Below are positions 10,899 to 42,411 of a stretch of 46,191 nt of DNA, one piece after another. Source of the stretch: a virus. Positions within the stretch are counted from its first letter, which is position 1. Each line of letters begins with the position of its first letter. The stretch lies in the IMG/VR virus record IMGVR_UViG_3300029905_000012. One strand, written 5' to 3'. Under the pieces are notes generated by a model. That model saw only the letters and a program-made list of their open reading frames with translations. It was not told the DNA's origin and ran no database searches. The translations under genes were made by a program, and so were the position numbers.

Positions 10899-10911
10899 GG
10901 AGGATTTACCT

Positions 10912-11673: not shown

Positions 11674-11690
11674 ACTTTTGGGAGGCCCGC

Positions 11691-12467: not shown

Positions 12468-12473
12468 TACAGC

Positions 12474-13352
12474 ATGAAATCGGACGCCCGGCTTGTTCGT
12501 GGGGCGGCCCAGAAAGAGCTGGTCAAAGCCTTCGAATCCCTCTGTGGTAGGCATGGCAGGTGGGAGGTGTGGGCTGACTGGATCGTCATGTGCGCCTGCT
12601 CCATTTCCAACGCGGTTGACCGTGCGCACCGGAATGAACGCGAAAAGACGTACAAAACCCTGAGCGAAAAATACACGGAAGCCGAGCGGCAGACCATGGC
12701 CGAGATGCTGGGCATGGTTGTAGCCGCACTGGATGAAAACCAGGATCAAGACCTGCTTGGCGAAATTTTCATGACGCTCGGCCTCGGCAACGAGCACAAC
12801 GGCCAGTTTTTTACACCCTACGACGTGTGCTGCGCTATGTCTGCGCTGAACAGTGAGAATATCGCCGCGCAGGTTGAGAGGCAGGGCTGGGTATCGGTCT
12901 CTGATCCCGCCTGCGGGGCCGGGGCGTTGCTGGTGGCATTCGCCAACGAGTGCCGGCGGCAAAAGGTCAACTACCAGCAAAGCGTGCTGTGCGTTGCCCA
13001 GGACATCGACTTTACCGTCGGCCTGATGTGCTACATACAGCTCAGCCTGCTGGGCTGCGCCGGGTACGTCGTGATCGGCGACACCCTGGTCCACCCGGCG
13101 ACCGCCTATGACCGGAGGGGGCTGATCCCGCGGGATGAGGGGAACGTCTGGTATACGCCCATGTATTTTAGGGACGTCTGGCACTGGCGCCGGGTGTGGG
13201 CCCAGGTGGATATGATGTGCAGCGCGGAAAAGCCGCAAGGCGCAGAGGTTGTTTCAAAACCTGAAACAACCACACAAAAACCGCGGACGCGGCCTAAAAA
13301 GGCACAACCGGCCGCCAGTGAAAACGAATATGGGCAGCTGACCCTGTTTTGA
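12474..13352 (+). CDS. N6-methyltransferase-like protein (SAM-binding motifs present; no NPPY/F motif seen)
   Basis: HNGQFFTPYDV and SDPACGAGALL match HsdM-like motifs X and I. The protein ends about 60 aa after GDTLVHP without a (D/N/S)PP(Y/F) motif. Confidence 0.6.
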   Translation: MKSDARLVRGAAQKELVKAFESLCGRHGRWEVWADWIVMCACSISNAVDRAHRNEREKTYKTLSEKYTEAERQTMAEMLGMVVAALDENQDQDLLGEIFMTLGLGNEHNGQFFTPYDVCCAMSALNSENIAAQVERQGWVSVSDPACGAGALLVAFANECRRQKVNYQQSVLCVAQDIDFTVGLMCYIQLSLLGCAGYVVIGDTLVHPATAYDRRGLIPRDEGNVWYTPMYFRDVWHWRRVWAQVDMMCSAEKPQGAEVVSKPETTTQKPRTRPKKAQPAASENEYGQLTLF

Positions 13353-13369
13353 AAAGAAGGAGTGACCCC

Positions 13370-13765
13370 ATGCAATACAAACTGACCATCCCCGGCCGCC
13401 TGCCTGGCCTGAATGAGCTGATCGAGGCCGAGCGGGCCAACCGATACAAGGGCGCGCAGCTCAAGAAGGACGCCGAGCGCCGCATCTGCGCCGAGATCCG
13501 CCGCCAGCTGCACGGGGTACATATCCGCCGGCCGGTGGTGATGCGGTATCTGTGGGTCGAGCCGGACCGCCGCCGGGACCGGGACAACATCACCGCCGGG
13601 CGCAAGTTCGTCCAGGACGCGCTGGTGCGCTGCAAGGTCCTGCAAAACGACGGCTGGAAGGAGATCGCCAGCTTTGCCGATGATTGGGCGGTGGATAAGG
13701 TGAGGCCCCGGGTGGAGATTGAGATCGTCGAGACAGAGGACGACGTTGGAGGGGATATGAGATGA
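13370..13765 (+). CDS. rusA: RusA-family Holliday junction resolvase
   Basis: ATG 13370 follows AAGGAG. LPGLNELI..ANRY..A.LKK and DRDNI.AGRKFVQDALV match the RusA pattern. Confidence 0.75.
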   Translation: MQYKLTIPGRLPGLNELIEAERANRYKGAQLKKDAERRICAEIRRQLHGVHIRRPVVMRYLWVEPDRRRDRDNITAGRKFVQDALVRCKVLQNDGWKEIASFADDWAVDKVRPRVEIEIVETEDDVGGDMR

Positions 13766-16257: not shown

Positions 16258-16259
16258 CC

Positions 16260-16451
16260 ATGAAGAAAGTCTACATCCTAACCATCGACCTCGAGAATCT
16301 GCGACCGCATGGAGAATGGGTAGTGCTCCAAATCGACAACTATTCTAATTGCGCAATTTTTGGATGTAGCCAGTGCAAAACTGCCGCAGGGATTATTACA
16401 AGACCGACATGGAGATTTTGCCCCCACTGCGGAGCAAAGATGGAGAACTGA
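16260..16451 (+). CDS. Small zinc-ribbon protein
   Basis: 63 aa with CSQC..CPHC. It lies in the lower-GC island. Confidence 0.55.
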   Translation: MKKVYILTIDLENLRPHGEWVVLQIDNYSNCAIFGCSQCKTAAGIITRPTWRFCPHCGAKMEN

Positions 16452-16453
16452 CC

Positions 16454-16663
16454 ATGAGCAACGAGATTATGTTTCCGGACGTAAACGCGCAAGCGTTGAA
16501 AATTGTTAAATATAACCTCGAAAACCCAGATGTCACCATCAGCGAAAAAACAGAAGCCATAAAGCGCGTTGCAGAAATGAAGGCACACGACAACCTGAGC
16601 AAGGCGGATTTGATCTTCGCGCTGCGCTGGCTTTTCCGGTATTACGACTTTTTGGAGGAATAA
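16454..16663 (+). CDS. Hypothetical protein (69 aa)
   Basis: ATG 16454 lies 3 nt after the previous stop. Lower-GC island. Confidence 0.5.
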   Translation: MSNEIMFPDVNAQALKIVKYNLENPDVTISEKTEAIKRVAEMKAHDNLSKADLIFALRWLFRYYDFLEE

Positions 16664-16665
16664 CT

Positions 16666-17013
16666 ATGCGAAAGATAGCTGAAATCAAGAATGACAAACG
16701 TCTCCGAATCGTAGATTCCGGGTTTGATGGTATGGCCTGCTACATCAACGACAAGCGGTACAAGGCACCGCGGGAAATGGCCATTATCGCATCGTGGGCC
16801 GGTGGTTGGGAGCACGTCAGTGTGAGCCTTCGAAACAGGTGCCCCACATGGGAAGAAATGTGCCTTGTGAAGGATATTTTTTGGAGGGATGACGAATGCG
16901 CTGTTCAGTTCCATCCGCCTAAAAACGAGTATGTTAACCTCCACCCGTATTGCCTGCACCTATGGAAGAAGATCGGCGAAGAAACAGACCTGCCGCCGAA
17001 AGAATTTGTTTGA
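16666..17013 (+). CDS. Conserved phage protein (WEHVSVS / LHLW motif family)
   Basis: 115 aa. GGWEHVSVS..PTWEEM..FW..QFHPP..YVN.HPYCLHLW is a recurrent phage domain of unknown function. Confidence 0.6.
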   Translation: MRKIAEIKNDKRLRIVDSGFDGMACYINDKRYKAPREMAIIASWAGGWEHVSVSLRNRCPTWEEMCLVKDIFWRDDECAVQFHPPKNEYVNLHPYCLHLWKKIGEETDLPPKEFV

Positions 17014-17026
17014 TTTGGAGGTGCCC

Positions 17027-17458
17027 ATGACATACCCTGAAAAAATCGCCTATCTCTACCGCTACCGCGACGCGCTGCGGCGGGAAAAGACCATCGCGGA
17101 TGAGATCGAGGCCCTGCGCGCCGAAGCCGCCCGCGTCACTCAGGCGCTGACCGGGATGCCCGGCGGCGGGGACGGGCAGGCCATCCCGCGGGCGGTGGAG
17201 CGGATCGTGGACGCGCAGCAGCGCCTCGCCGCCGAGGCTGCGCGCTGCGCCGCCGCCCGCGCCGAGGTCAGGGCGGCCATTGATACCGTGCCCGACCCCC
17301 TGCGCCGGGACATCCTGACCCGGAGGTACATCCTCGGCCAGCGCTGGGAGCGGATCGCGGCCGACCACAATGTCACCCTGCGATGGGCGGCAAAACAGCA
17401 CCACCGGACGGTGGATGCGATGGAAATTTCGCCCGAAAATCCCGAAAGAGTTCCTTGA
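17027..17458 (+). CDS. Sigma-70 region-4-like DNA-binding protein (putative late-gene regulator)
   Basis: ATG 17027 follows GGAGG. The C-terminus RRDILTRRYILGQRWERIAADHNVTLRWAAKQHHRTV is a sigma-r4-type HTH. It sits just upstream of the packaging genes. Confidence 0.6.
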   Translation: MTYPEKIAYLYRYRDALRREKTIADEIEALRAEAARVTQALTGMPGGGDGQAIPRAVERIVDAQQRLAAEAARCAAARAEVRAAIDTVPDPLRRDILTRRYILGQRWERIAADHNVTLRWAAKQHHRTVDAMEISPENPERVP

Positions 17459-17492
17459 AGTTCCTATTTCGGGCGAGGTATACTGTACTCGT

Positions 17493-17527
17493 AGAGCCAC
17501 GGATGGAGACACCCGCGGCTCTTTTTG
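17493..17527 (+). terminator. Hairpin plus T-run upstream of the tRNA
   Basis: agagccacgg / ccgcggctct (one mismatch) followed by tttttg. Confidence 0.55.
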
Positions 17528-17530
17528 TAT

Positions 17531-17604
17531 GCGGCGGTAGCTCAATGCAGAGCGGCGGTCTCCAAAACCGCGGGCTGCAGGTTCGACTCCTGCCCGTCGT
17601 GCCA
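17531..17604 (+). tRNA. tRNA-Trp: tRNA-Trp (anticodon CCA)
   Basis: Manual fold: acceptor gcggcgg/ccgtcgt (two G-U pairs), D-arm gctc-aatgca-gagc, anticodon arm gcggt-ctCCAaa-accgc, variable loop gggct, T-arm gcagg-ttcgact-cctgc, discriminator G, encoded CCA. It is close to E. coli tRNA-Trp in the anticodon and T arms. Confidence 0.9.
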
Positions 17605-17885
17605 GCATCCGGGACCCCGTAACCGGACCTCGAAAGCGCATGGTGGTTTCTTTGTGCATACACTCCTTTCCCACCGCCGGGAGCTGCGGGCGTCCCCCTT
17701 CGCGCCCGCCCAGGTCGGAGGCCCCGGAAGGCTGTAACAGGCCTGTGCGCTTTATTTTTTGTTTCGCGGGTCCTTCCTGGAGGGATTGGCCCTGCGGGGC
17801 ACGGAAGGCCCGATGCTTTTCTGCGAAAAAAATTCAACAAAATTCACACTTCGTTACAACTAACTTTGCAGAATGAAATGACAGC

Positions 17886-18443
17886 ATGAGAAACGTTGAA
17901 AATGGAAAGGCGTTTGCCGGTGGACTCTACCGCGTGGAGGTCGTGGCGGACCTGTTTGGGGTGAGTGTGCGGCGTATCCAGCAGCTCACCCAGGAGGGCG
18001 TCCTGCCGACCACCGAAACCCCGGACGGACGCCGGTATGATCTTGTGCCGACGGTGCAGAAGTACACGGCCTATCTGTCCGACAAGGCCTACGGGCGCAG
18101 CAAAACGGACAAAGAGGCCGAACTCAAGGAGCAGAAGCTGCGGGCCGAAATCGCCCTGAAAAACAGCCAGGCCGAGCTGCACAAGCTGAAAACGGCCATT
18201 GAAAAGGGCGAGTACATCGAGGTCAGCCAGGCGGTGGATGAGCTGTCCGACTTTATGGCAAACTTCAAAAAATTTGCCTATGGAATGACCTCACGCCTGG
18301 CCGGCATGCTGACCGGCTATGTGGATGCAACCACCGTGAGAAGTACGCAGCGGTCGCTGCGAAAGGAGTTGGATACCATGCTGAATGCCTTTGTGGACGG
18401 GATGCGGCTGAAAGGTGACGACCAGGGCGGGATGAAGGCGTGA
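17886..18443 (+). CDS. terS: Terminase small subunit (N-terminal MerR-like HTH)
   Basis: The HTH is VADLFGVSVRRIQQLTQEGVLP. It lies directly upstream of TerL and overlaps it. Confidence 0.7.
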   Translation: MRNVENGKAFAGGLYRVEVVADLFGVSVRRIQQLTQEGVLPTTETPDGRRYDLVPTVQKYTAYLSDKAYGRSKTDKEAELKEQKLRAEIALKNSQAELHKLKTAIEKGEYIEVSQAVDELSDFMANFKKFAYGMTSRLAGMLTGYVDATTVRSTQRSLRKELDTMLNAFVDGMRLKGDDQGGMKA

Positions 18444-20290
18444 GCCGTCGCCCTGCGGTAAAGCCCTATGATCTGCCGGCGTGGATGGCTCCCGCCGTTG
18501 AACTGCTGCGCCCGCGGGAGCGGCTGAGCGTGTCCGCGTGGGCCGAGAAAAACCGTATCCTCCCGGACAGCAATTCCATTTCAGGCCCCTGGCGCAATGC
18601 TCTCACCCCCTACCTGACCGAGATCATGGACGCCTTCAGCGACGATACCACCGAGCGGATCGTCTTTGTCAAGCCCACCCAGGTGGGCGGCACGTCGGCT
18701 ATGGAGAACGCTCTGGGCAGCGCCATCGATCAGGACCCGGCGCCAGCCATGATCGTCTATCCTTCCGACGAGCTGGCCGAGCGGACCGTCGAAGCAAAGC
18801 TGGGGCCGATGTTCCGCCAGTGCAAGCCGCTGCGGGCCAAGTACAGGGAGCATGAGAGCAAGGTCCTCGCGCAGAAATTCCGGGACATGACCGTCTATCT
18901 GACCGGCGCCAACAGCCCGGCCGACCTGGCGTCCACCCCCATCCGGTACCTGTTCCTCGATGAGGTGGACAAGTACCCCGGAGCGACAAAGCGCGAGGCC
19001 GACCCCATCTCCCTGGCCATCGAGCGCACCAAGACCTACATCTTCAACCGCAAGATCTTCATGGCGTCCACCCCCACCCTCAAGACCGGCCCCATCTGGA
19101 AGGCCAAAGAGGAGGCGGACGCCGAAAAACACTATTTCGTGCCCTGCCCGCACTGCGGCAGGTACATCGAGCTGAAATTCGCGCAGCTCAAATGGCCCAG
19201 CAAGGACGACGTGCCCGACCGGGCAAAGCGCGCCGACATGACCACCTACCTGTGCCAGGAGTGCGGCTGCATCATCACCGACCGGGACAAGGGCGCCATG
19301 CTGCGCGCCGGCCAGTGGCAGTACGTCCGGCAGGACGCGCAGACGCCCAAGAGCGTGGCCTACTGGATGAACACCCTATACTCCCCGTTCACCTCCTTCT
19401 CGGACATCGCGCGGGAGTTCATGAAGTCAAAGGACGACCCCGACCTGCTGCACAACTTTGTCAATTCGTGGCTGGCCGAACCGTGGGAGGATACCAAGCT
19501 CAAGACCAACGCCGAGATGGTGATGGAGCGCCAGACTGCCGTGCCGGCCTGGGAGCTGCCTGCCTGGGCCAAGCTGTTGACCGGCGGCATCGACGTGCAG
19601 GAAAACTGCCTGTACTGGACCATCCGGGCCTGGGGCGACTACATGACCAGCCAGAACGTGGCGCACGGGCAGGCCCTCTCGATGGACGAGGTCGAGCGGA
19701 TCATGAACACCGAGTTCCGCGCCCCGGACGGCGGGTCCATGATGGTGGACCTCGCCCTGATGGACAGCGGCGATCAGACCGACGCCGTCTACAATTTCTG
19801 CATCGCCAACACCGAGTGGGTGCGGCCCTGCAAGGGCGTGTCCAACCTGCAGGGGCATTACCGCATCTCCACCGTGGACAAGGCCGGCAGCCGGGCCAAC
19901 GGCCTGCAGCTCATCCTGGTGGACGGCGGCAAGTACAAGGACATGATCGCCGCCCGGATGCGCCGCCCGAACGGCAGCGGGTCGTGGATGGTTCACAAGG
20001 ACTGCGACCTCGACTACGCCGAGCAGGTCACGTCCGAACACAAGGTCACCGAGCGGGTCAACGGCAGAGAGGTGCAGCGGTGGGCGGTAAAATCCTCCCA
20101 CGCCGACAACCACTACCTGGACTGTGAGGTCTATGCAGCGGCCGCCGCCGACATCATGGAGGTGCGCTCGCTCTACCTGTGGGACGATGCCGCAGCGGCT
20201 GCACAAACGCCGCCGGCCGCTGCGCCGGCGCAGCGCCATCAGCCCGCGCCCGAAGAAGATTGGATCAGGGAAAACGAAAACTGGCTCTGA
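18440..20290 (+). CDS. terL: Terminase large subunit, GpA (lambda-like) family
   Basis: WAEKNRILP..SGPWRN..TPYL.EIMDAFSD..IVFVKPTQVGGT, LFLDEVDKYP and a CPHCG..CQECG zinc motif are typical of GpA-type terminases. Confidence 0.9.
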   Translation: MSRRPAVKPYDLPAWMAPAVELLRPRERLSVSAWAEKNRILPDSNSISGPWRNALTPYLTEIMDAFSDDTTERIVFVKPTQVGGTSAMENALGSAIDQDPAPAMIVYPSDELAERTVEAKLGPMFRQCKPLRAKYREHESKVLAQKFRDMTVYLTGANSPADLASTPIRYLFLDEVDKYPGATKREADPISLAIERTKTYIFNRKIFMASTPTLKTGPIWKAKEEADAEKHYFVPCPHCGRYIELKFAQLKWPSKDDVPDRAKRADMTTYLCQECGCIITDRDKGAMLRAGQWQYVRQDAQTPKSVAYWMNTLYSPFTSFSDIAREFMKSKDDPDLLHNFVNSWLAEPWEDTKLKTNAEMVMERQTAVPAWELPAWAKLLTGGIDVQENCLYWTIRAWGDYMTSQNVAHGQALSMDEVERIMNTEFRAPDGGSMMVDLALMDSGDQTDAVYNFCIANTEWVRPCKGVSNLQGHYRISTVDKAGSRANGLQLILVDGGKYKDMIAARMRRPNGSGSWMVHKDCDLDYAEQVTSEHKVTERVNGREVQRWAVKSSHADNHYLDCEVYAAAAADIMEVRSLYLWDDAAAAAQTPPAAAPAQRHQPAPEEDWIRENENWL

Positions 20291-33610: not shown

Positions 33611-34760
33611 CTGGGAGAGCGCGCTTGCAAATACCCCCGATATTTCCTTCATCGATGACCGCGGTGTGAATGATATCCGCAGCGAGATGGTCGCTGACTA
33701 TGAGACCTATATTTCCGCGGCCACTGGCGAGACTGTCACTCTTGACAGATCGAGCCCGCACCGGATGGAACTGTACGCTGCGGCCGACCAGATATACCAG
33801 GCGATGCAGTACATCGACCGGGCAGGCAAGCAAAACCTGCTCAAGTACAGCTATGGCGGGTTCCTCGACAACCTCGGCCTGTTCAAAGGAACGACCCGCA
33901 ACCAGGCGACAGCTGCTTCCACCACCATCCGGTTCACTCTGTCGGCAGAACGGCCCTCAGTTGTTTCTATTCCCAAGGGGACGCGGGTGGCGATGGAGGG
34001 CGTGATCTACTTTGCGACCGACGAATATGCCGAAATCCCCATCGGCGGGATGACCGTTGACGTTCCGGCTACCTGCACGGTGGCAGGGGAAGGAGGCAAC
34101 GGCTACGAGATAGGCGATCTGTCCACCATTGTGGACCCGGTGCCGTATGTGGCCAGCGCCAGCAACATCACACCCACCAGCGGCGGCGCAAACATCGAGA
34201 GTGATGAAAGCTACAAAGAGCGCATCTACCTTGCCCCCGGCGCCTATTCCACGGCGGGGCCCGAAGATTCCTACATCTACCATGCCAAGTCCTACAGCCC
34301 TGCGGTGGGCGACGTTGAAGTCACCAGCGACCAGGCTGCCGGAACCGTGGACGTGGTGTTCCTCATGACCGACGGCTCCAAGCCGAATGAAGATGCCATC
34401 GATGGGATGCTCGACTATCTGTCCGCCCGCAACCTGAGACCGATGACAGACCTAGTCCGGGTCGCCGCGCCAGATGAAGTGCCTTATACCATCGCCCTGA
34501 CTTACTACATCAACCGCAGCGACAGCGCCCGCGCTGTATCCATTCAGCAGAGCGTCACGGTAGCTGTCAGCGAATATGTATCCTGGCAGCGCACCATCGG
34601 CCGGGATATCAACCCGGACGAGCTGCGGGCCCGCATCATGGCCGCCGGCGCAAAGCGCATTGTGGTCACCGCGCCCACCTATACGGTGGTGCTCGGCACC
34701 AAAGTGGGCGTTTTGCAGGGTGATCCGTCCGTGAGTTACGGAGGGCTGGAAGATGATTGA
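33603..34760 (+). CDS. Baseplate J-like protein
   Basis: 385 aa. It has a GTG start and the typical size and position of a J-family protein. Confidence 0.8.
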   Translation: MLDWESALANTPDISFIDDRGVNDIRSEMVADYETYISAATGETVTLDRSSPHRMELYAAADQIYQAMQYIDRAGKQNLLKYSYGGFLDNLGLFKGTTRNQATAASTTIRFTLSAERPSVVSIPKGTRVAMEGVIYFATDEYAEIPIGGMTVDVPATCTVAGEGGNGYEIGDLSTIVDPVPYVASASNITPTSGGANIESDESYKERIYLAPGAYSTAGPEDSYIYHAKSYSPAVGDVEVTSDQAAGTVDVVFLMTDGSKPNEDAIDGMLDYLSARNLRPMTDLVRVAAPDEVPYTIALTYYINRSDSARAVSIQQSVTVAVSEYVSWQRTIGRDINPDELRARIMAAGAKRIVVTAPTYTVVLGTKVGVLQGDPSVSYGGLEDD

Positions 34761-35412
34761 ACTAAAAGGCAGTCTCTTTACCCAGATCATGCCGGACAAC
34801 CTGGCCAGCCAGGTTGAAACACAGGCGTTTGCCTATGCGCTGCACATCCAAATCGACAAGCTTCTGGCCTATGCAGATGCCTGCCGCAGCTATGCCGCCA
34901 TTGACACTGCGCCAGAGTTTTTGCTGGATTATCTGGCTGTGGAGCTGCGGACACCGGCCTACCGCGAAACATACCCCATCGAGACCAAACGAGACCTGGT
35001 CAAGGCATCGCTGCTCTTCTATTGCAAGATGGGCACGCCCTGGGCGGTTGAACGGCTTATGAGAGCTATATTCGGTGGCGGCCACATCGCTGAGTGGTAT
35101 GAGTACGACGGCGAGCCGCACCACTTCCGGGCAACCATCGAAACTTCCGCTGGCATCAGTCAGGAGGACGTGCGCGAATTTTGGCTCATCCTTGCCTCAG
35201 TCAAGCGTCTGTCATCCTGGTTGGATGATATCACGACCGTGACTGAGATGACCACCGAACCGCCCATCCACATTGGGACGGCAATGTGCGGCACCGTCAT
35301 GGAAACCACACTCCCGCCGGCCTATGTGGATGTGCAAGCCATCCTCTATGTGGGAGCTGCGCAGTGCGGCACCATTATGCAGACCGTGCTGCCGAACATC
35401 AAGGAGGGATAA
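34753..35412 (+). CDS. Baseplate/tail protein gpI-like (XkdU-like)
   Basis: 219 aa. LPDYLAVEL...Y......KR.L...S...Y..KGT resembles the P2 gpI family. Confidence 0.7.
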   Translation: MIELKGSLFTQIMPDNLASQVETQAFAYALHIQIDKLLAYADACRSYAAIDTAPEFLLDYLAVELRTPAYRETYPIETKRDLVKASLLFYCKMGTPWAVERLMRAIFGGGHIAEWYEYDGEPHHFRATIETSAGISQEDVREFWLILASVKRLSSWLDDITTVTEMTTEPPIHIGTAMCGTVMETTLPPAYVDVQAILYVGAAQCGTIMQTVLPNIKEG

Positions 35413-35413
35413 C

Positions 35414-36415
35414 ATGGCAAATATCTATGGTTTTACAAGCCCGACTGCCGGCCGTGAATTGATTGCGGGTCTGCTTGCAGGAGAGACCCTGACCATCACC
35501 AAGGTGATGGTGGGCACCGGCAAACCCGAAAATCTGGACCAGATGGCGGCGCTGACGGATCTGATCTCGCCGATGGCTTACGCGACGTCCACAACCCCGG
35601 TCCATTCCGGGAGCACTGTGACCATGACCATCGAGTACCGTTCCGACCTCAACGGATCACTGGCGGCAGGTTTTTACCTCAACGAATACGGCGTCTTCGC
35701 CAAAACCGAGACGTCCGAAGAGACCCTGATTTATTACGGCAGTCTGGGCGACTATCCGCAGTGGGTCAACGCCTATAGCCCTGGCCAGCCCCCGGATATC
35801 CGCCGCTTTCCCATTACCATCGTAGTGGCGGACGAGGTCAACGTCAACGTGCAGTACACGGCAGATGCCTTCATCACCGCCGAAGAAGCTGAAGCCCTGC
35901 TGAAAAGCATGATTGATGGTGTGGTCGGCGCCTCCGATGTGGTGGGCATCACCATCCCCGCCTCCGCGTGGGTGCCGGGAGGAACCGGGCTGTATCACTA
36001 CCAGGCGGATGTTGCCTGCGCGTTGGCACTGGCTACACACTTCCCGGTGGCATCTCTGCACGATGATGCCCTGGGCACTGCGGCGGCAGCCGGTGTTGCC
36101 CCTATCATGCAGACATTTGCAGGCAGCGCACGCTTCTATGCGCAGGCCATCCCGGCCGACGATATGAACGCCACACTGGCCCTTATCTCGGGCAGCGAAG
36201 AGCACCCCGGCGACGGCCGCGGCATCGTCAACATGGGCAACACCATGCGAGTCAACGTCCCCGGCGGCGTTGCGGGCCTTGACGAAGACGGCAAAGTCCT
36301 GCCGAGCGTGCTGCCGGATGATATGACCGGCGGCTTCATTCAATACACCGGCCAGTTCCCGGCCAGCCCGAAGCCCAACACGCTCTACGGCGAGACTCTC
36401 GCGGATTATACCTGA
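35414..36415 (+). CDS. Tail fibre protein 1
   Basis: ATG 35414 follows AAGGAGGG. The N-terminus MANIYGFTSPTAGRELIAGLLAGETLTITKVMVG is typical of fibre proteins that attach next to gpI-like proteins. Confidence 0.7.
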   Translation: MANIYGFTSPTAGRELIAGLLAGETLTITKVMVGTGKPENLDQMAALTDLISPMAYATSTTPVHSGSTVTMTIEYRSDLNGSLAAGFYLNEYGVFAKTETSEETLIYYGSLGDYPQWVNAYSPGQPPDIRRFPITIVVADEVNVNVQYTADAFITAEEAEALLKSMIDGVVGASDVVGITIPASAWVPGGTGLYHYQADVACALALATHFPVASLHDDALGTAAAAGVAPIMQTFAGSARFYAQAIPADDMNATLALISGSEEHPGDGRGIVNMGNTMRVNVPGGVAGLDEDGKVLPSVLPDDMTGGFIQYTGQFPASPKPNTLYGETLADYT

Positions 36416-36416
36416 C

Positions 36417-36683
36417 ATGGAAGATCGGATCGAATTCTCCCGCCCTATGAGCGAGGTGAGCTGTATTGTCGGCAATCTTTTTGCGGAGCTCGACCCGCCC
36501 TGCGGTGTGAGCGGCGGCCGGAAAGATGTACTGACCATTTTTGGCAGAACACGAGCCACCGGCGACTGCGCCGTCCTGCGAGTGTACGCAGACCGCTGCG
36601 TATACACCGGGCCGCCCGACGACCTCGAAGCGGCGATGGGCGGATGCTGCCCGGAGAAGGGAGGCTGCCCAAATGGGGAATAA
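36417..36683 (+). CDS. Hypothetical Cys-containing protein (88 aa)
   Basis: It starts 1 nt after the fibre stop and overlaps the avd start by 11 nt. Confidence 0.5.
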   Translation: MEDRIEFSRPMSEVSCIVGNLFAELDPPCGVSGGRKDVLTIFGRTRATGDCAVLRVYADRCVYTGPPDDLEAAMGGCCPEKGGCPNGE

Positions 36684-37212
36684 CGCGAAAGACCTGCTGC
36701 TTGCGGCCAAAGCCAGAGACCTGCTGATCTACACCCGCAAAAAGACAAAACCTGTCAACAGCGACGTGGACGCGCGAGACGTGGCAAAGCTGCTGCGCCG
36801 GATCGCCGAGCTGGACGACCTGGGCAAGGCCCGGGAGGTCTGCACAGCCACCGCAGGCGCGCTCAAAAAGCGCAGCAAAGATGGATTCTCCAAGGTTGCG
36901 TTCCGGGATTTTGGCCAGGATATGCGGGATATCACAAAAGATATCCTGCGCGGCATCTATGCAGCCAACAACATACCGTTTGCGGCTGAGCCTGAGCGGC
37001 GCATCGCCCTGATCGACGAGGTGCTGAATAACGCCGCACTGCTGCTGGAGTACATCTCCATCTGCAAAGAAGCTGAAATCATCAGCGCGCAGACCGCCGG
37101 CATCTGGTCCGGCAAGGCAGTGGACGTCAAGCGCATGGCTGCAAGCTGGCGCATCAACAGCGCCCAAAGGGCACAGGCCCTTAAAACCAAAGGGTGTACG
37201 CGGCAGGGATGA
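36673..37212 (+). CDS. avd: DGR accessory variability determinant (Avd-like four-helix-bundle protein)
   Basis: ATG 36673 follows GAAGGGAGG. AKDLLLAAKARDLLIYT.. and ..ILRGIYAANNIP...ERRIALIDEVLNNAALLLEYISICKEAEIISAQT....GKAVDVKRMAASW fit the Avd/S23-like helix pattern. It is immediately upstream of TR and RT. Confidence 0.7.
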   Translation: MGNNAKDLLLAAKARDLLIYTRKKTKPVNSDVDARDVAKLLRRIAELDDLGKAREVCTATAGALKKRSKDGFSKVAFRDFGQDMRDITKDILRGIYAANNIPFAAEPERRIALIDEVLNNAALLLEYISICKEAEIISAQTAGIWSGKAVDVKRMAASWRINSAQRAQALKTKGCTRQG

Positions 37213-37249: not shown

Positions 37250-37379
37250 CCCCGCCCGTGCCTGGTCCCGGTCGCCGAACCTCAACAACAACAACGACAA
37301 CAACAACGTCTGTACGGTGGAGGCGGACGGCGATGCGAACAACTGGAACTGCAACAATTCTTATGCGGTCGCGCCCGCT
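37250..37379 (+). repeat. DGR template repeat (TR)
   Basis: The TR is 130 nt and intergenic, with 13 AAC codons plus 1 AAT in register. It matches 39273..39399 except at TR adenines and for one 3-nt length difference. Confidence 0.9.
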
Positions 37380-37587: not shown

Positions 37588-38769
37588 ATGACATACGAAG
37601 AAATTTGCGACTTTGAGACGCTTTACACCGCCTACCTTGCAGCCCGCAAAGGCAAGCGGAAAAAGCGGAGAACGCTTGAGTTCGAGGAGAACCTGCTCGA
37701 AAACCTGAAAGACATTTCGGACGACCTGTCAAACGGCGTTTATCAGCCTGGGGAGTTTGAGCGCTTCAAAATTTTCGAGCCGAAGGAACGGGACATCGAA
37801 GCCCCGGCATTTAAGGATAAGGTTATTCTGCACGCCGTCGCAGACAATGGTCTGTACGATGCCATCACGTCCAGCTTTGTGCGGAATAACTGCGCGAACC
37901 AGCGCGGAAAGGGCACCGCAGACGCCGTAATCAGGCTGAAACAGTGCTTTGTGCGCTACTACGCGCAGTATAAGACTGCCGATGGCTGGATTTTGAAGTG
38001 CGACATCCGGCATTTCTTTGCCAGCATCGACCACGACATTCTGAAAGCAAAACTGCGGAAAGTCGCCAGAAAACACGACATCGACCCGCGCATTTATGAC
38101 CTGCTGTGCGTCTACATCGACAAGGCAGAGGGCCTGCCGCTGGGCTATCAAACCTCGCAGCTGTTTGCCTTGCTGATGCTGGACGCCCTCGATCATTACA
38201 TCGAGGAGGAGCTGGGTTTTCGGTTCCACGTGCGGGGCATGGATGATTTTGTGGTGCTTGCACCGACCAAAGAAGACGCCGTGCGGCTGCTGGATACTAT
38301 CCGAAAAGCTGTCCATGACAGCAAACTCGAACTTAACAAGAAAACGGCCATCTTCCCCATGCGCAACGGCGTGGATTTTCTGGGCTACCGCACCTATCTG
38401 ACCGAGACGGGCGCGGTGGTTCAGAAGCTGCGCAAAAGCTCCATCCAGCGCATCCGAAAGCGCATCAAACGCTGGCGGCACGACTACGCAGAGGGAAAGA
38501 TCACAGCCGAAAAGATCAAAAGCAGCTTTTTGGCGTGGGATGCCCACGCGGCTTTTGGGGACACCTACGCTTTGAGGCAGAAATACGCGAAGGAGGTGGG
38601 CGAAATTATCGGGGAGCCGATAAGAATCCACAAAAAGATCAATTCGACGCGCATCCAAAGGGAGAAGCGCCGGGAAAAGCAGTACCGCTGCATCGAAGCA
38701 AAGCGCAAGCGCCAATTTGCCATGCAGGCAGGGTACAGCAAACCCGGAGTTCCCCCATGGAGCGAATAA
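37588..38769 (+). CDS. DGR-type reverse transcriptase
   Basis: RT motifs seen: FEPKERDIEAPAFKDKVILHAV, NCANQRGKGTADAV, KCDIRHFFASIDHDIL, LPLGYQTSQLFALLML (the DGR-typical (I/L)GxxxSQ motif) and RGMDDFVVLA. The start is ATG 37588, or 37567. Confidence 0.9.
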   Translation: MTYEEICDFETLYTAYLAARKGKRKKRRTLEFEENLLENLKDISDDLSNGVYQPGEFERFKIFEPKERDIEAPAFKDKVILHAVADNGLYDAITSSFVRNNCANQRGKGTADAVIRLKQCFVRYYAQYKTADGWILKCDIRHFFASIDHDILKAKLRKVARKHDIDPRIYDLLCVYIDKAEGLPLGYQTSQLFALLMLDALDHYIEEELGFRFHVRGMDDFVVLAPTKEDAVRLLDTIRKAVHDSKLELNKKTAIFPMRNGVDFLGYRTYLTETGAVVQKLRKSSIQRIRKRIKRWRHDYAEGKITAEKIKSSFLAWDAHAAFGDTYALRQKYAKEVGEIIGEPIRIHKKINSTRIQREKRREKQYRCIEAKRKRQFAMQAGYSKPGVPPWSE

Positions 38770-38784
38770 GAAAGGAAGGTGTAT

Positions 38785-41766
38785 ATGCCGACTGTAAAAC
38801 TCGGTACAAAATCCGTCGGGAGCATCATAAAACTGAATGAGCTCGGGAGGCCTGCAAACTATATCATCATTCAGCAGGGGCTCCCGTCCTCCGGAAACTA
38901 TGATGCGAGCTGCAACGGCACCTGGGTGCGCCGTCAGAGCGCCGTGGCAGAAAAAGAATGGGATAGTTCCAATAACGATTACGCAAATTCCGACATACAC
39001 TCGTGGCTGAATAACACCTATAGTGGATTTCTGGCCATGTTGGATGACGACATCCACTCCCAGGGCGTCCTGAATGTAAAAATCCCTTACAGACCCGGCA
39101 GCGGTATGAGCAGTACTGTCAACAGTGGCTCGCGCGGCTTGAGCTGCCGTGCGTTCCTGCTGTCCATGTTGGAGGTTGGACTTACTCCGGGATACAGCCC
39201 GAGAGAAGGCGCCACTCTCTCCTATTTTTCGAGCGGGGGTGCATCCAGGCGAATCGTCAACTACAATGGTTCCCCCGCCCGTGCCTGGTCCCGGTCGCCG
39301 GACCTCGGCGCCGACGACGGCAGCGTCGTCTGTGCGGTGGAGGCGGACGGCGGTGCGGACTACTGGGGCTGCTACGATTCTTATGCGGTCGCGCCCGCTT
39401 TGATCCTGAACTCTGATCTCTGGGTCTCTGACGACGGCACACTCTCGATCAACCAGCCCCCCAGCGCCCCGTCGAGCATCGCAGCCAGCAACGTGATCGG
39501 CAACCAGAACGCCACCGTGACCCTCGGCGCAGCGACCGATGAGGATGGGACCATCGCCAACTACATCTACGAGCGGCAGGTGGACGGCGGCAGGTGGACG
39601 CAGTTTGCGAGCACCAGCAGCCTGAGCGTTACCGACAGCATCAACGACAGCTGGACGACCGTGACCTACCGCGCCAAGGCGGTGGACAACCTGGGCGCAG
39701 AGGGCCCGTATGCGACCAGTCAGGCATACACCGTCGTGCACAACCAGCCGCCGACGGCCCCGGGGTCCATTAACGCGACCAACGTTGTGGGCGGCCAGGA
39801 TGCGACGATCACCATCACGGCGGCCACCGACCCCGACGGCACGGTGGAGAGCTATGTGTATGAGCGCAGCGTGGACGATTCGTCGCACTGGGACATTATC
39901 GCCACCACCAGCGCTCTGAGCACCACCGATACCATCAGCAGCGAGTGGGGCACGGTGGCCTACCGGGCGAAGGCTGTCGACGACGACGGCGCGTCCGGCC
40001 CCTATGTGACCAGCGAGCAGTACGACGTCAACGTCGGATGGGTGCTGATTGGCGGCCCCAGCACCGCAATGGGTCAGCAGATCAAGCCTTTCACCCTGAG
40101 CGCCAACATCGGCGTTTCTGGCCAGACCGGCGTCACCGGCATCGCCGTGACCGGCTACCTGGACGGGAAAAAAGTCCTGGATACGACCATCAACCAGAAT
40201 GACAACGCCGAAATCTACGTCGACACCCGCATCCTTGCCAGCGGTCAGCACACCATCCAGATGACGGCCGAAAAGACCGACCTGCTGCCCGCCAACAAGG
40301 CGTGGCAGTTCGCCATCCCGTTCAATGCCCTGCCGGACGGCGGCAAGGCCGAACAGCTGAGGGACGAACAGGGGAACCCCATCTTCCCGCGCACCACCTC
40401 GCAGCAGGTCATCGGCAAGAACGGCCTGCCGGTCCAGAACGACCTTGACAACATCGAGAAGCGGTTCAGTGGTCTGACCGGGCATCTGGAGCCCGTCGAT
40501 GCGGTGTTCCTCGGCACGGCAGGCGCACAGACCGAGCTCCCGCGCGAGAGCGGCGTCCATTACTGCTTCGGCGTGTACAGCACAGCAGGAAGTACAAACT
40601 TTACGATGGCACTTATCTCGGCTGGAAGTAGTGCTTCCAAAACACTTGACGGCAATGTGACGATTGGAGCAAGCACCGATAAGTTTATTGTCTCGCTCAA
40701 CGGTAGCAATGCAGCTATTGTGCAGTATTTCAAGTTCGTGGTGGACTCTGAGGCAGAGATCGTGACCAACCCTGTCGCCCTGTTCACCGCGCTGGAGCAG
40801 CCGCACGTCTTCTCGGCCAGCGGCGGCAGCACGTCCAGCGTGACCAGCCAGACCGAGGCGCTGCAGACCATCATCGCGGACAACGCAAACCACAACTACT
40901 ACGTGCTGACGGGCACCGACGGTACCAAGTACTACATCGCAGCGCAGGACGTCATCCAGCCGAGCACCGGCAGCTTTACCGGGCCCGTGTACCAGGACGA
41001 CCAGGGCACCACGCTGTATGCGGGACGGACGTTGACGATGGTGGACACCTCCAACGTGGCCGCGCTGTTCCAGCCGCTGGCCGCGACCGTCTACGACGTG
41101 ACCACGCAGGGCACGAGCGTAAGCGCGGGCTCGAACATCAACGAGACGCTGCTGGCCATGATCGAGGCGCAGCCGACCTGGCACCGGTACGCCATTCCCG
41201 GTTCGGGCGGCGAGACCTACTACGTCCTGAGCGAGGCCGTTATCTCACCGGACGCCATGAACGCGCCCGACGTTTACTACTGCACCGACGGCAGCACCTA
41301 CTACACCGGCGGGACGCTGCTGTTGCTTGCCATCGGCAACGTCGGCGACATCATGACCTTTGCGGGCCAGCAGTGGATTATCTCCCACAAGACCGCATCG
41401 GAAGCCTACCTGACGCTGAATGGTCTGTCTGGCAACTCGACTTGGTATGACTTGGACAGCACCTGTCAGACTTGGGAAAACAATCATCTGAATGAAACGC
41501 AGAAAGCCATCCTGAAAACCATTACCGCAGACAGTACATCCGGTTTCGTATTCGTTGCCACCAAAGATCAAATGGACGGTGGTTTTAGCTACTTTAACAG
41601 TAATAGTAGGAGAAGCGTAGGTGACTATTACTGGATTTCTAGCGAGTATTCCTCGGACAGCGCGTGGAGCGTGCGCTACGATGGGTACCTCAACGGCTAC
41701 TACGACGACAAGTCGAGCTCGATCGGGTTCCGCCCGTCCATCTGCATCGACCTGACCAAGCTGTAA
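38785..41766 (+). CDS. DGR target protein: N-terminal lectin-fold (DUF6273-like) domain carrying VR, two FN3/Ig-like repeats, long beta-rich region, C-terminal non-variable paralogous domain
   Basis: ATG 38785 follows AAAGGAAGG (the track start GTG 38779 is also possible). The VR encodes ..ARAWSRSPDLGADDGSVVCAVEADGGADYWGCYDSYAVAPAL.. The C-terminus ..YYWISSEYSSDSAWSVRYDGYLNGYYDDKSSSIGFRPSICIDL shows the same fold signature. Confidence 0.85.
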   Translation: MPTVKLGTKSVGSIIKLNELGRPANYIIIQQGLPSSGNYDASCNGTWVRRQSAVAEKEWDSSNNDYANSDIHSWLNNTYSGFLAMLDDDIHSQGVLNVKIPYRPGSGMSSTVNSGSRGLSCRAFLLSMLEVGLTPGYSPREGATLSYFSSGGASRRIVNYNGSPARAWSRSPDLGADDGSVVCAVEADGGADYWGCYDSYAVAPALILNSDLWVSDDGTLSINQPPSAPSSIAASNVIGNQNATVTLGAATDEDGTIANYIYERQVDGGRWTQFASTSSLSVTDSINDSWTTVTYRAKAVDNLGAEGPYATSQAYTVVHNQPPTAPGSINATNVVGGQDATITITAATDPDGTVESYVYERSVDDSSHWDIIATTSALSTTDTISSEWGTVAYRAKAVDDDGASGPYVTSEQYDVNVGWVLIGGPSTAMGQQIKPFTLSANIGVSGQTGVTGIAVTGYLDGKKVLDTTINQNDNAEIYVDTRILASGQHTIQMTAEKTDLLPANKAWQFAIPFNALPDGGKAEQLRDEQGNPIFPRTTSQQVIGKNGLPVQNDLDNIEKRFSGLTGHLEPVDAVFLGTAGAQTELPRESGVHYCFGVYSTAGSTNFTMALISAGSSASKTLDGNVTIGASTDKFIVSLNGSNAAIVQYFKFVVDSEAEIVTNPVALFTALEQPHVFSASGGSTSSVTSQTEALQTIIADNANHNYYVLTGTDGTKYYIAAQDVIQPSTGSFTGPVYQDDQGTTLYAGRTLTMVDTSNVAALFQPLAATVYDVTTQGTSVSAGSNINETLLAMIEAQPTWHRYAIPGSGGETYYVLSEAVISPDAMNAPDVYYCTDGSTYYTGGTLLLLAIGNVGDIMTFAGQQWIISHKTASEAYLTLNGLSGNSTWYDLDSTCQTWENNHLNETQKAILKTITADSTSGFVFVATKDQMDGGFSYFNSNSRRSVGDYYWISSEYSSDSAWSVRYDGYLNGYYDDKSSSIGFRPSICIDLTKL
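39273..39399 (+). repeat. DGR variable repeat (VR)
   Basis: 127 nt. By manual alignment there are 19 substitutions relative to TR, all at TR adenine positions, and one AAC codon fewer. Confidence 0.9.
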
Positions 41767-41778
41767 GGGGGTGAGCGT

Positions 41779-42411
41779 ATGTACATTTTGAGAGACACAC
41801 CGAGCGCAGAGGGCCAGTATGAGGCCATCCAACAGACCACGCAGCAGATGCCGCCTCCTGGGTACGTCTGGTGGCCTGATTCTCTGGAACGGAACACCTT
41901 CGCTCAGTATGATGGCTTCATTGTACCGGTGATTGCGCGCAAGACTGTCAAGAGCTATACGCCGAACGTGGAGGGCTTTCAGGCCCACCAGAAAGACCTT
42001 CTGACCCTGTGCAAGGCTGAGCGTATCGCAGACAGCAAGACGGAGTTAGCGGCCTATCTGCTGGCGCATCCGATGCAGTGGACAGACGGAAAGTATTATT
42101 CCATCACGGCGGAAAAACAGCAGCAGCTTACCTCGAAAATCATGAGCGCGACTATGGCCCAGACCATGAGCGTTCCGTATAATCTGACATGGAACAGCAC
42201 CGGTGACGAATGCACGACCTGGACGCTGCCCGATCTGTCCTCCCTGGCGTTTGCGATTGACGCCCGCGTTACGTCTCTGGTCAGCTACCAGCAGGAAAAA
42301 GAGGTCGAAATGCAGAATGCCGCAACGATGGATGATCTGGAAGCGATCACCGTCGATTACGATTCCGTGCCCCTCCCTGCTGCATCCACGAACGGCGGTG
42401 AGCAGGCGTGA
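41779..42411 (+). CDS. DUF4376-like protein (fibre-associated)
   Basis: 210 aa. ..AERIADSKTELAAYLLAHPMQWTDGKYYSIT.EKQQQL..., ..W......C..W.. and L..LA.AI fit the DUF4376 pattern seen after fibre genes. Confidence 0.55.
   Translation: MYILRDTPSAEGQYEAIQQTTQQMPPPGYVWWPDSLERNTFAQYDGFIVPVIARKTVKSYTPNVEGFQAHQKDLLTLCKAERIADSKTELAAYLLAHPMQWTDGKYYSITAEKQQQLTSKIMSATMAQTMSVPYNLTWNSTGDECTTWTLPDLSSLAFAIDARVTSLVSYQQEKEVEMQNAATMDDLEAITVDYDSVPLPAASTNGGEQA

Follow-up and report, generated by a model that had tools for sequence, protein, structure and literature searches.

The DGR cassette and its surroundings

The window, by which we mean the whole stretch of 46,191 nt analysed here, contains a complete DGR. 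Its elements are found in the order avd, TR, RT and target, which is the order proposed in an earlier reading made from the sequence only, and all of them lie at or near the positions suggested there. The carrier is a temperate Faecalibacterium-type myophage with the target encoded in the tail-fibre region, after Baseplate_J, Tail_P2_I and a tail fibre gene and before the lysis genes. The features of the locus are given in Table 1. The protein which follows the target has 64% identity with the gene downstream of a target homologue in a DGR-less locus (L015).

Table 1. Features of the DGR locus and of its target gene in the window
Feature	Position	Strand	Size or residues	Basis and remarks
Tail_P2_I, just before the 333-aa tail fibre gene	34753-35412			Pfam
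Tail fibre protein, upstream of the cassette	35414-36415	+	333 aa	PHROG 7037 'tail fiber protein', 2e-34
ORF directly 5' of avd	36417-36683	+	88 aa	PHROG 21058, function unknown
avd (accessory variability determinant)	36673-37212	+	179 aa	PHROG 3206 'Avd protein of DGR', E 7.6e-20
TR (template repeat)	37250-37379	+	encodes ARAWSRSPNLNNNNDNNNVCTVEADGDANNWNCNNSYAVAPA	Direct repeat with VR
DGR reverse transcriptase (RT)	37588-38769	+	393 aa	Pfam RVT_1 1e-14; PHROG 1423 2.3e-114
Target gene, tentaclin-like ('Hoc-like') modular binding protein	38785-41766	+	993 aa	Continuous ORF with RBS
N-terminal DUF6273 (C-type-lectin-like) domain	38785-39429	+	residues 1-215	Pfam PF19789, 2e-19
VR (variable repeat)	39273-39399	+	residues 163-205	Direct repeat with TR; ends in GC-rich GCGGTCGCGCCCGCT
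Two tandem FN3-like repeats	39451-40035	+	residues ~223-417	Repeats 59% identical, E 1e-38
Conserved core	40036-40809	+	residues ~418-675	Column entropy; present in all isoforms
C-terminal cassette	40810-41748	+	residues ~676-988	Two ~65-80-aa 'YY' repeats and lectin-like domain
C-terminal divergent DUF6273 / C-type-lectin-like domain	41347-41763	+	residues ~855-993	AF2, Foldseek, hhalign
Putative orphan VR-like hypervariable patch	41614-41724	+	residues 944-980	Entropy 2-3 bits on invariant scaffold
Protein always following the target	41779-42411	+	210 aa	Pfam DUF4376 1e-4, below curated cut-off (weak)

The product of avd is recognized by its PHROG; profile searches gave no match for it in Pfam or NCBIfam. 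In the RT, residues 185-191 are LGYQTSQ, which fits the DGR-clade motif [LIV]GxxxSQ. Its catalytic motif is RGMDD instead of RYxDD: a G replaces the canonical Y of YxDD. The ORF directly upstream of avd has 81% identity with an ORF in the same position in L019, a locus with another baseplate type, and FP_Brigit and nd12 also have homologues of it just before avd. It was not found in the DGR-less locus L018. To judge from this distribution it accompanies the DGR cassette and is a candidate for an extra accessory gene. Two points can be directly tested by DGR biochemists: that a lineage with a GMDD-type RT, not YxDD, still mutagenises, and that this conserved ORF accompanies avd-TR-RT.

The template and variable repeats

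TR and VR differ by 19-20 substitutions inside the repeat, every one of them at a TR adenine; none is found at the 62+31 non-A positions scanned. The remaining differences are a CC/TT change just beyond the GC-rich 3' end (39385-39399), past which the two repeats diverge, and a 3-nt gap in an AAC tract. Such a match lies far outside what chance would give: the runner-up in the window is mismatched at 26 of 62 non-A positions. A scan of the whole window which tolerates changes at A gave no second VR for this TR, so that the cryptic copy which the sequence-only reading had wished to exclude is absent. Downstream of the VR neither an inverted repeat nor a stable fold (z = 0.87) was detected which could correspond to the hairpin that in BPP-1 accompanies the GC-rich homing signal (IMH).

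Among relatives the TR is nearly invariant, with 4 differences in 141 nt. Five loci have near-identical TRs and different VRs, with 14-19 A-site substitutions per lineage. Pairs of proteins with at most one difference in the N-terminal framework differ in about 11-13 residues of the VR, and the hypervariable columns across homologues correspond to residues 173-198, inside the VR. Since all differences between TR and VR fall on TR adenines and the VRs differ between near-identical relatives, we conclude from these comparisons that the DGR is currently active and belongs to the adenine-mutagenesis type. Random bases would be placed opposite A during reverse transcription of the TR RNA, and the resulting cDNA would replace the VR. 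In this way the N-terminal domain alone would have its ligand surface reprogrammed.

Organization of the target protein

The target gene starts with an ATG at 38785, preceded by AAGGAAGG. As proposed in the sequence-only reading, the VR is found near the N-terminus of the 993 residues. We have considered whether the VR domain might be a separate short ORF which ends in the VR, in which case the arrangement would be canonical. Nothing was found in favour of this gene model. There is no stop codon from 38785 to 41766, and gene calls on dozens of independent contigs give the same uninterrupted protein of 980-1008 aa. The linker which follows the VR, LILNSDLWVSDDGTLSINQPP, is conserved among homologues, and published relatives share the gene model with an N-terminal VR. 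Because the ORF is continuous and its frame is kept in more than 80 full-length homologues, the separate ORF was rejected; its probability is negligible.

After the N-terminal domain there are two FN3-like repeats, also detected as a DNA repeat (D2), which have weak matches to FN3 domains of titin (E 0.005), in agreement with the earlier proposal; PHROG 10993 and 21129 cover residues 218-321 in this region. The beta-rich stretch that follows had been estimated at about 550 residues, a figure which has to be reduced: the uncharacterised part has about 430 residues (418-850). It starts with the core, where conservation within the protein is highest, with a mean column entropy of 0.1-0.6 bits vs 0.7-2.0 at both ends. 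Profile and PDB searches with the core gave no family match and no PDB sequence match. The C-terminal cassette contains two YY repeats with 31% mutual identity (E 4e-8). Isoforms of 679-681 aa keep the core and have lost the whole cassette by an in-frame deletion (...QPHV/IDLTAL); in other homologues it is swapped for other modules. By these comparisons the cassette is optional and exchangeable. We infer that residues 418-675 anchor the protein on the virion tail and that both ends are probably exposed binding heads.

Both this anchor and a location of the target in the virion tail are suggested by gene order and conservation only. In L015, L018 and L019 the target homologue directly follows the baseplate wedge genes, and a further fibre gene is lacking. 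The alternative is that the target is a Hoc-like capsid decoration or an adhesin, not a tail fibre or receptor-binding protein. Residues 4-321 match PHROG 10993, 'Hoc-like head decoration' (4.8e-84), the FP_Brigit target is annotated likewise, and tandem Ig/FN3-type repeats together with a binding domain at the N-terminus, not the C-terminus, are reminiscent of decoration proteins and adhesins (PMC10743442). However this label stems from an analogy of architecture: T4 Hoc has no lectin domain and a different anchor (PMC10743442). The gene is always found between baseplate wedge or tail fibre genes and lysis genes, in L015 and L018 it is the sole fibre-sized gene after Baseplate_J and Mu gp48, and exchangeable C-terminal tips are typical of fibres. 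A decoration protein is thus rather improbable.

Two lectin-like domains in one protein

The N-terminal domain matches PF19789 in residues 56-209 with 70.5 bits, vs a cut-off of 23.5. The AF2 model of residues 1-215 has a pLDDT of 94.3, with strands 181-185 and 191-195 within the VR, in line with the surface beta-hairpin which the VR forms in tentaclins (PMC10743442). In Foldseek it has a single significant PDB match, 9qa6 (E 2.7e-6, TM 0.63), and no significant direct match to a canonical C-type lectin. DUF6273 has been assigned to the C-type-lectin fold (PMC10743442). The assignment of this domain to a lectin fold comes from its DUF6273 membership, its homology to the C-terminal domain and the literature, which together support the lectin-like domain claimed in the sequence-only reading. 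The VR makes up its last ~43 residues.

The same reading had noticed that the fold signature recurs at the C-terminus, and this is supported. Residues 834-993 have no direct Pfam match even at E 10 and stay below the DUF6273 gathering threshold; however 24 of the 53 members of the C-terminal domain family match PF19789 (best 1.4e-28). In hhalign the two domains align with 94.6% probability (E 7e-8), the VR being aligned to the variable patch of the C-terminal domain. The profile comparisons thus identify the latter as a true remote paralogue of the N-terminal domain, and they give indirect support to its place in the DUF6273 superfamily. Its AF2 model (pLDDT 95.5) has its best structural matches in 8q4e, the C-terminal domain of Legionella Lcl (E 1.9e-4, probability 1.0), and in 9qa6 (TM 0.68); it also matches CD23, snaclecs and NKG2A at probability 0.9-0.98. 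Its predicted fold is C-type-lectin-like. No TR-like partner of the C-terminal copy is found on either strand of the window: even with changes at A tolerated, every candidate has 23 or more non-A mismatches in 81 nt. This agrees with the earlier remark that no nucleotide similarity of this copy to the TR could be seen.

The variable patch of the C-terminal domain

The C-terminal copy had been described as static. This is true among close relatives: 14 proteins which come from different samples have the same patch sequence, and of 55 pairs of proteins with no more than 6 differences in the framework, none has more than 2 in the patch. It is not true across lineages, where the patch is as variable as the VR of the N-terminal domain and has DGR-like signatures. 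A comparison is offered by L009 (ENA ERZ16268263 scaffold_339), a contig unrelated to the window, which has a bona fide TR/RT/VR trio for a homologous domain; there the TR adjoins the domain, and TR and VR are mismatched at 17 A sites and 2 non-A sites. Compared with this TR, the patch of the window is mismatched at 13 of 32 A sites and at 11 of 76 non-A sites (p = 0.005), and its variable columns coincide with AAC codons of that TR. NNC codons are found in 16 of the 20 variable codons, vs 49% in the whole gene (p = 0.005); in the genuine VR they are 11 of 12. The residues in the variable columns are mostly Y, S, D, N and G. Two homologous loci, L011 and L002, are identical over ~900 nt and then have 39 changes within ~110 nt, with identical flanks. 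The 3' flank of the patch, GGGTTCCGGCCGTC, is identical to the TR of L009, and the homology ends right after GGCCGTC.

No cognate TR for the patch was found in the window, in the loci of relatives or in pattern scans of IMG/VR, GTDB genomes and JGI metagenomes, so the evidence for a DGR origin of its diversity is indirect. The patch also has indels, and variability reaches residues 882-905, beyond the stretch equivalent to the TR; these two features fit recombination or selection as well. We infer that the C-terminal domain is an orphan or fossil VR carried by an exchangeable cassette. Its variable surface would have been produced in a previous genomic setting, with another TR as template. In this phage the head would be fixed, and it would change by exchange of the cassette or of the patch, not by templated mutagenesis.

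A different explanation is that the domain was never a DGR target and that its diversity is due to diversifying selection on a receptor-binding surface, together with mosaic recombination of fibre tips. Several features agree with it. At the position of the C-terminal cassette, homologues may have nothing, a lectin-type module, a full DUF6273-type module or another module; between the window and L006 the divergence is not limited to the patch and takes in residues 881-985, the entire distal half of the domain, and framework divergence increases along with that of the patch. The indels may be added here, but they do not exclude a DGR origin, because the genuine VRs of the N-terminal domain and of L009 also show indels in AAC tracts. 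Selection and recombination alone do not account for variable columns which fall on the AAC codons of a genuine TR for a homologous domain, nor for the A bias of the mismatches, the excess of NNC codons and the richness in Y, S, D, N and G. We consider this explanation unlikely.

The opposite possibility is that the C-terminal domain is a live second target, whose diversity comes from the TR of another DGR, acting in trans from the host or from a co-resident prophage. Both heads of the protein would then be programmable, each by a retroelement of its own. The sharply limited changes between L011 and L002 agree with it, as does the 3' flank shared with L009. The borders of the patch are those of the TR/VR homology in L009, and L011 has the TR-type base at the 5' junction. 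DGR components can act in trans and on targets which are not adjacent (PMC5758913), but remote targets are not expected for phage DGRs according to Wu et al. (PMC5758913). No such TR has appeared in the searches described above, and the patch nearly never differs between proteins with the same framework, where the VR of the N-terminal domain always does. The 3' homing sequence would also be incomplete, since the homology to the TR of L009 stops after GGCCGTC. A live second target is therefore highly improbable, and it would be almost as surprising if the domain were a still serviceable VR, rewritten in trans now and then by the TR/RT of a different DGR in the host or in a co-resident phage. 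In a weaker form of the idea, VR domains already diversified by other DGRs would be taken up by phages and serve as exchangeable fibre tips.

The explanation which we prefer for the whole locus, with a probability of about 0.78, is an active avd-TR-RT DGR with a tentaclin-like target downstream of the RT, which has a fixed, former VR as its C-terminal head. If the fossil VR is real, diversity made by a DGR can outlive its retroelement and spread as ready-made, exchangeable receptor-binding cassettes; surveys which count only VRs matched by a TR would therefore underestimate the reach of DGRs. If rewriting in trans took place instead, the result would be a fibre with two programmable heads and cross-talk between DGRs of different elements.

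Comparison with known systems

The order of the genes and the position of the VR had been considered non-canonical, in the sense of unusual. This does not hold: FP_Brigit (2018) and Lelie (2024) have an RT followed by a target with N-terminal DUF6273, downstream of baseplate genes. Wu et al. 2018 have described 48 cassette architectures, in which the position of the target varies around an avd-TR-RT core (PMC5758913). The tentaclins (2023) are a published class of such targets, one protein having a second C-terminal lectin domain (PMC10743442). The architecture of cassette and target is not new, it is already published for Faecalibacterium phages, and our results mainly confirm the layout of these gut phages, with a DGR upstream of a tentaclin-type protein whose N-terminal lectin head is mutated. 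The new detail is found at the far end, where an untemplated lectin-like domain looks like a former DGR target: templated and untemplated heads of the same fold are found in one protein, and the untemplated one seems to show the footprint of a different TR. An abundant unannotated subfamily is also added, with 607 homologues in metagenomes.

[quoted passage not shown] The target has 38% identity with that of FP_Brigit in residues 1-494, where the similarity ends; in tblastn it matches nd4 and nd12. With 993 aa it is larger than the tentaclins (313-649 aa). Behind the lectin domain they have between one and four Ig-like/FN3 domains, and the target has two; unlike them, it continues with a core of ~260 aa without a detectable family, the two YY repeats and the second lectin-like domain, whereas phage tentaclins end with an Ig-like anchor domain which has a seven-residue consensus. 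It corresponds to the 'tentaclin-like, more complex' category of the tentaclin paper (PMC10743442). [quoted passage not shown] The C-terminal cassette gave no tblastn match in 50,697 phage records, which do not include BK023705, so its lectin-like module has no detectable relative there and is absent from these deposited phage genomes.

Lelie and the candidate prophage CP11 belong to the same host group and also have two DUF6273 modules associated with one fibre region, with the RT followed by a target with N-terminal DUF6273 (PMC11792537). In them the large and small DUF6273 targets are separate proteins with two VRs, both templated by the TR (PMC11792537), while in the window a single protein contains both modules and the TR serves just one of them. 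The system of BPP-1 (mtd-avd-TR-brt) has the same adenine-specific mutagenesis from TR to VR, an Avd, a DGR-type RT and a VR with a GC-rich 3' end, which closes a lectin-type fold with variable residues on a fixed scaffold. The scaffold is of Mtd type in BPP-1 and of DUF6273 type in the window, where, unlike BPP-1, the target follows the RT, the protein starts with the VR domain and no hairpin is detected past the VR.

The structural matches of the two domains, the C-terminal domain of Legionella Lcl (8q4e) and the N-terminal DUF6273 domain of an IgA peptidase from Thomasclavelia ramosa (9qa6), have 12-17% identity with them; they are cellular proteins and not DGR targets. Closer relatives of the C-terminal domain are found in standalone lectin-domain proteins of 170-260 aa, with 50-69% identity. 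In L009 the same type of domain lies at the end of a protein of 442 aa and is a genuine VR, served by a TR and an RT of its own, whereas in the window it is fused to a tentaclin-like protein and the local TR has been lost or was never present. L009 also carries decayed paralogues.

Organization of the retroelement

A complete diversity-generating retroelement (DGR) is found on the + strand of the window, followed by a tentaclin-like target protein of 993 amino acids. The gene order avd-TR-RT-target (TR, template repeat; RT, reverse transcriptase), the coordinates and the place of the variable repeat (VR) near the N-terminus had been given correctly by the sequence-only reading: a TR scan of both strands of the whole window, tolerating A-site mismatches, finds this VR and no second one, the next-best site having 26 mismatches at 62 non-A positions. 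The 15 nt between RT and target hold the ribosome-binding site AAGGAAGG. The Avd protein, recognized by PHROG, has no match in Pfam or NCBIfam. The gene model with a single ORF stands: over 80 full-length homologues share one continuous frame, which rules out the VR domain as a separate short ORF. An antisense ORF of 1151 aa (37729–41184, – strand) extends across RT and target; coding evidence for it was not found, and we ascribe it to high GC content and sense-strand codon bias.

Features of the DGR in the window and of related sequences
Feature	Position	Strand	Remarks
88-aa ORF	36417–36683	+	overlaps avd start
avd	36673–37212	+	PHROG 3206 "Avd protein of DGR", 7.6e-20
Template repeat (TR)	37250–37379	+
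Reverse transcriptase, 393 aa	37588–38769	+	Pfam RVT_1 1e-14; PHROG 1423 2.3e-114; DGR signature LGYQTSQ
Target ORF, 993 codons	38785–41766	+	uninterrupted
Variable repeat (VR)	39273–39399	+	encodes residues 163–205
Unrelated contig with its own DGR, L009 (ENA ERZ16268263 scaffold_339)	10001–19089	– (DGR)	RT 13966–15786; TR 16221–16125
Examples of target C-terminal forms	L001 9560–9628		P0069, P0071, P0092, P0094, P0045

TR and VR of the window differ by 19–20 substitutions, all of them at TR adenines; no non-A position inside the repeat differs. Homology stops past the GC-rich GCGGTCGCGCCCGCT, where the next bases are CC in the TR and TT in the VR. The TRs of five loci (the window and the loci with target homologues L001, L002, L006 and L011) hardly differ, at 4 positions in 141 nt, and each of their VRs has its own set of 14–19 A-site changes. 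In a set of 80 full-length proteins, about 11–13 VR residues differ between members of pairs whose N-terminal framework differs at one position or none. Judged from these comparisons, the DGR is active.

The catalytic motif of the RT is RGMDD, at 38236–38247 (residues 217–220): Gly replaces the canonical Tyr of YxDD. This motif is common to all six related loci; the RTs of FP_Brigit, Lelie and two unrelated DGRs (L009 and L012) have RY[MV]DD. The RGMDD enzyme evidently works, since the VRs in the lineage still vary at A sites. Repeat lengths also vary. The window VR is one codon shorter than its TR within an (AAC)n tract (TR 37283–37305, VR 39306–39325), and this TR has one AAC more than those of its relatives. 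In L002, too, the VR lacks 3 nt relative to the TR; in L001 it lacks 6 nt, in L006 and L011 the two lengths are equal, and in L009 the VR is 6 nt longer. These differences suggest slippage in cDNA synthesis or replication. No hairpin or cruciform of the BPP-1 type was detected downstream of the VR (39400–39470), where inverted repeats are absent and the z-score of the DNA fold is 0.87.

The 88-aa ORF accompanies the DGR cassette. Its counterpart in L019, a locus with another baseplate type, is 81% identical, and L018, which has no DGR, lacks it; homologues are found directly upstream of avd in FP_Brigit, where they are unannotated, and in nd12. This ORF may be a DGR accessory gene that has gone unrecognized. 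The 89-aa ORF of L015 is not related to it. L018 and L019 have near-isogenic tail regions, without and with a cassette of about 2.35 kb (88/90-aa ORF, avd, TR and RT), which in L019 is inserted exactly between a gene of about 105 aa and the target. On this evidence the DGR behaves as a mobile insert. The lysis genes of L018 include an IS605 OrfB/TnpB-like gene.

Domains of the target protein

At the N-terminal end, residues 56–209 correspond to Pfam DUF6273 (70.5 bits, cut-off 23.5). The AF2 model of residues 1–215 has a pLDDT of 94.3, and its sole significant PDB match is 9qa6, an IgA peptidase of Thomasclavelia (E 2.7e-6, TM 0.63), in which the N-terminal domain is annotated as DUF6273 (PMC12402451). 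Canonical C-type lectins give weak and partial matches only, so that on direct structural comparison the lectin fold of this domain is putative. For the C-terminal domain, the last 148–160 residues have no match in Pfam; its AF2 model (pLDDT 95.5) matches the C-terminal domain of Legionella Lcl (8q4e, E 1.9e-4), CD23, snake-venom lectins, NKG2A and 9qa6 (TM 0.68).

No similarity between the two domains is detected by BLASTP: their homology is seen at the profile level only. A profile-profile comparison gives a probability of 94.6% (E 7e-8); in its alignment the N-terminal VR lies opposite YW..S....AW.V..DG........GFRPS in the C-terminal domain. A profile search with the C-terminal domain in 1.84 billion proteins yielded 317 representative clusters; DUF6273 is recognized by Pfam in 24 of the 53 family members tested, with a best E of 1.4e-28. 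It was right to see the same fold signature at both ends: they are remote paralogues in the DUF6273 / C-type-lectin-like superfamily.

Between the two ends, residues 223–417 (approximately) form two FN3-like repeats, 59% identical to each other, with weak matches to titin. Conservation within the protein is highest at residues 418–675 (0.1–0.6 bits per column, compared with 0.7–2.0 at both ends); the stretch 418–850 has no match in Pfam, PHROG, NCBIfam or PDB sequences. Residues from about 676 to 988 are a cassette made of two "YY" repeats (31% identical) and the lectin-like domain. Not all homologues have this cassette, and it can be exchanged: isoforms of 679–681 aa from the same 90%-identity clusters have an in-frame deletion of it, which joins QPHV to IDLTAL, and in other homologues its place is taken by a full N-type DUF6273 domain or by a third YY repeat with an unrelated domain. 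In the L019 target, a weak and decayed resemblance to the TR is still seen in the DNA of the C-terminal N-type domain, which mismatches it at 13 A sites and 27 non-A sites.

Variability of the C-terminal patch

The C-terminal copy had been described as static. On short time scales it is: the patch at residues 944–980 (41614–41724) is identical in 14 proteins from different samples, and there are at most two patch differences in 55 pairs with up to six framework differences, whereas the N-terminal VR is always different in comparable pairs. Apparent patch differences of 2–3 residues between proteins with the same framework are mostly alignment shifts. In the longer term the description fails: residues 944–980 are as hypervariable as the N-terminal VR, with 2–3 bits per column around an invariant scaffold (Y949, W950, S952, G967 and GFRPS). 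A TR-like partner of the patch is found neither in the window nor in L002, L003 and L006.

The closest relatives of the C-terminal domain are standalone proteins of 170–260 aa. One of them, P0216 (258 aa), is encoded in L009, where the same type of domain closes a 442-aa protein as a genuine VR, with its own TR and an adjacent RT. This TR encodes TSTENSSNNAWNVNSDGNLNNNNNKSNSNGFRPS and differs from its VR at 17 A sites and 2 non-A sites. L009 also has three lectin-domain paralogues with a decayed TR match: the 258-aa copy, with 15 A-site and 11 non-A mismatches, and two 273-aa copies in which little similarity is left. Live and fossil VRs are therefore found side by side in one phage.

When the window patch is aligned with the L009 TR over 112 nt, mismatches affect 13 of 32 A sites and 11 of 76 non-A sites (p = 0.005). 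The Asn codons of this TR align with the majority of the variable columns that the window family has between residues 954 and 980. NNC codons account for 16 of the 20 variable codons of the patch, compared with 49% in the whole gene and 11 of 12 in the true VR. The templated relative, the bias of mismatches towards A sites and the excess of NNC suggest, as far as sequence comparison goes, that a DGR generated the diversity of the patch. A further observation comes from the target genes of L011 (12850–12960) and L002 (9850–9975): about 900 nt are identical, then 39 changes, substitutions and indels, fall within about 110 nt, and the flanks are identical again. The boundaries coincide with those of TR and VR in L009. 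The pattern resembles a replacement of the retrohoming or short-patch type, for which no local TR was found.

We consider that the C-terminal patch is an orphan or fossil VR, probably diversified earlier by another TR and now changing by exchange of cassettes or patches; we give this reading a probability of about 0.65. Its variability could also result from selection and recombination alone, without any DGR history. Three observations speak against a purely DGR origin: variability also reaches residues 882–905; the window and L006 diverge across the whole distal half of the C-terminal domain; and no cognate TR came up when IMG/VR, GTDB genomes and JGI metagenomes were scanned by pattern. The 3' end expected of a TR cognate to 41614–41724 is GGGTTCCG(C/G)CCGTCCATCTGCATCGA. 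An exact 23-mer of the TR2 type has no match in IMG/VR or GTDB; the degenerate TR2-type pattern has one unrelated match in GTDB, in Pirellulaceae, and none in the JGI metagenomes. A looser NNAWNVN-type pattern retrieved only the unrelated DGR L012, and the motif is therefore generic. Set against the A-site bias and the templated relative, an origin by selection and recombination alone appears unlikely to us. Still less probable is that a live TR acting in trans rewrites the patch; DGRs would then cross-talk, and both heads of the protein would be programmable. We prefer the orphan-VR reading, and could not find this character of the second lectin domain described in the literature.

Relation to known systems

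FP_Brigit and Lelie have the same avd-TR-RT-target order and a target with an N-terminal DUF6273 domain; the FP_Brigit protein is 38% identical over residues 1–494. The catalogue of Wu et al. 2018 lists 48 cassette architectures, in which the target position varies around an avd-TR-RT core (PMC5758913). Tentaclins, as a class, carry the VR on a beta-hairpin of an N-terminal C-lec/DUF6273 domain, after which come Ig/FN3 domains; the authors who defined the class note that 5'-proximal VRs are rare and describe a tentaclin-like protein of 830 aa that has a further C-lec domain at its C-terminus (PMC10743442). Lelie and CP11 have one large and one small DUF6273 target, with a VR in each (PMC11792537). 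Because all these systems were already known, the window protein is a member of a published class: it belongs to a larger, previously unannotated subfamily and is not a new architecture. The observation of the sequence-only reading is confirmed and its interpretation partly supported: the "non-canonical" arrangement is not new. The C-terminal module was not matched in a tblastn search of 50,697 deposited phage genomes, a collection which does not include BK023705, the phage of the 830-aa protein. Near-identical DNA is absent from GenBank phages, and a search for related loci in IMG/VR returned a single locus.

Genome position and likely role

The genome is of the myovirus type. From the sheath and tape measure genes, the order continues with Phage_GPD, Baseplate_J and Tail_P2_I to a 333-aa tail fibre gene (PHROG 7037); next are the DGR and its target, followed by a conserved 210-aa protein and the lysis genes. 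In phages with a Mu-type baseplate the target homologue comes directly after Baseplate_J, gp48 and the gene of about 105 aa, either with the DGR cassette (L019) or without it (L015 and L018); no other fibre-sized gene is present in these three loci. A tail-associated binding protein fits better than the label "Hoc-like head decoration" inherited from FP_Brigit, judging by where the gene lies, by the exchangeable tips at the C-terminus and by the conserved centre. The protein would be held through its central region and would present the programmable N-terminal head, together with the fixed C-terminal head when the cassette is present. The phage also has a tRNA-Trp (anticodon CCA) at 17531–17604.
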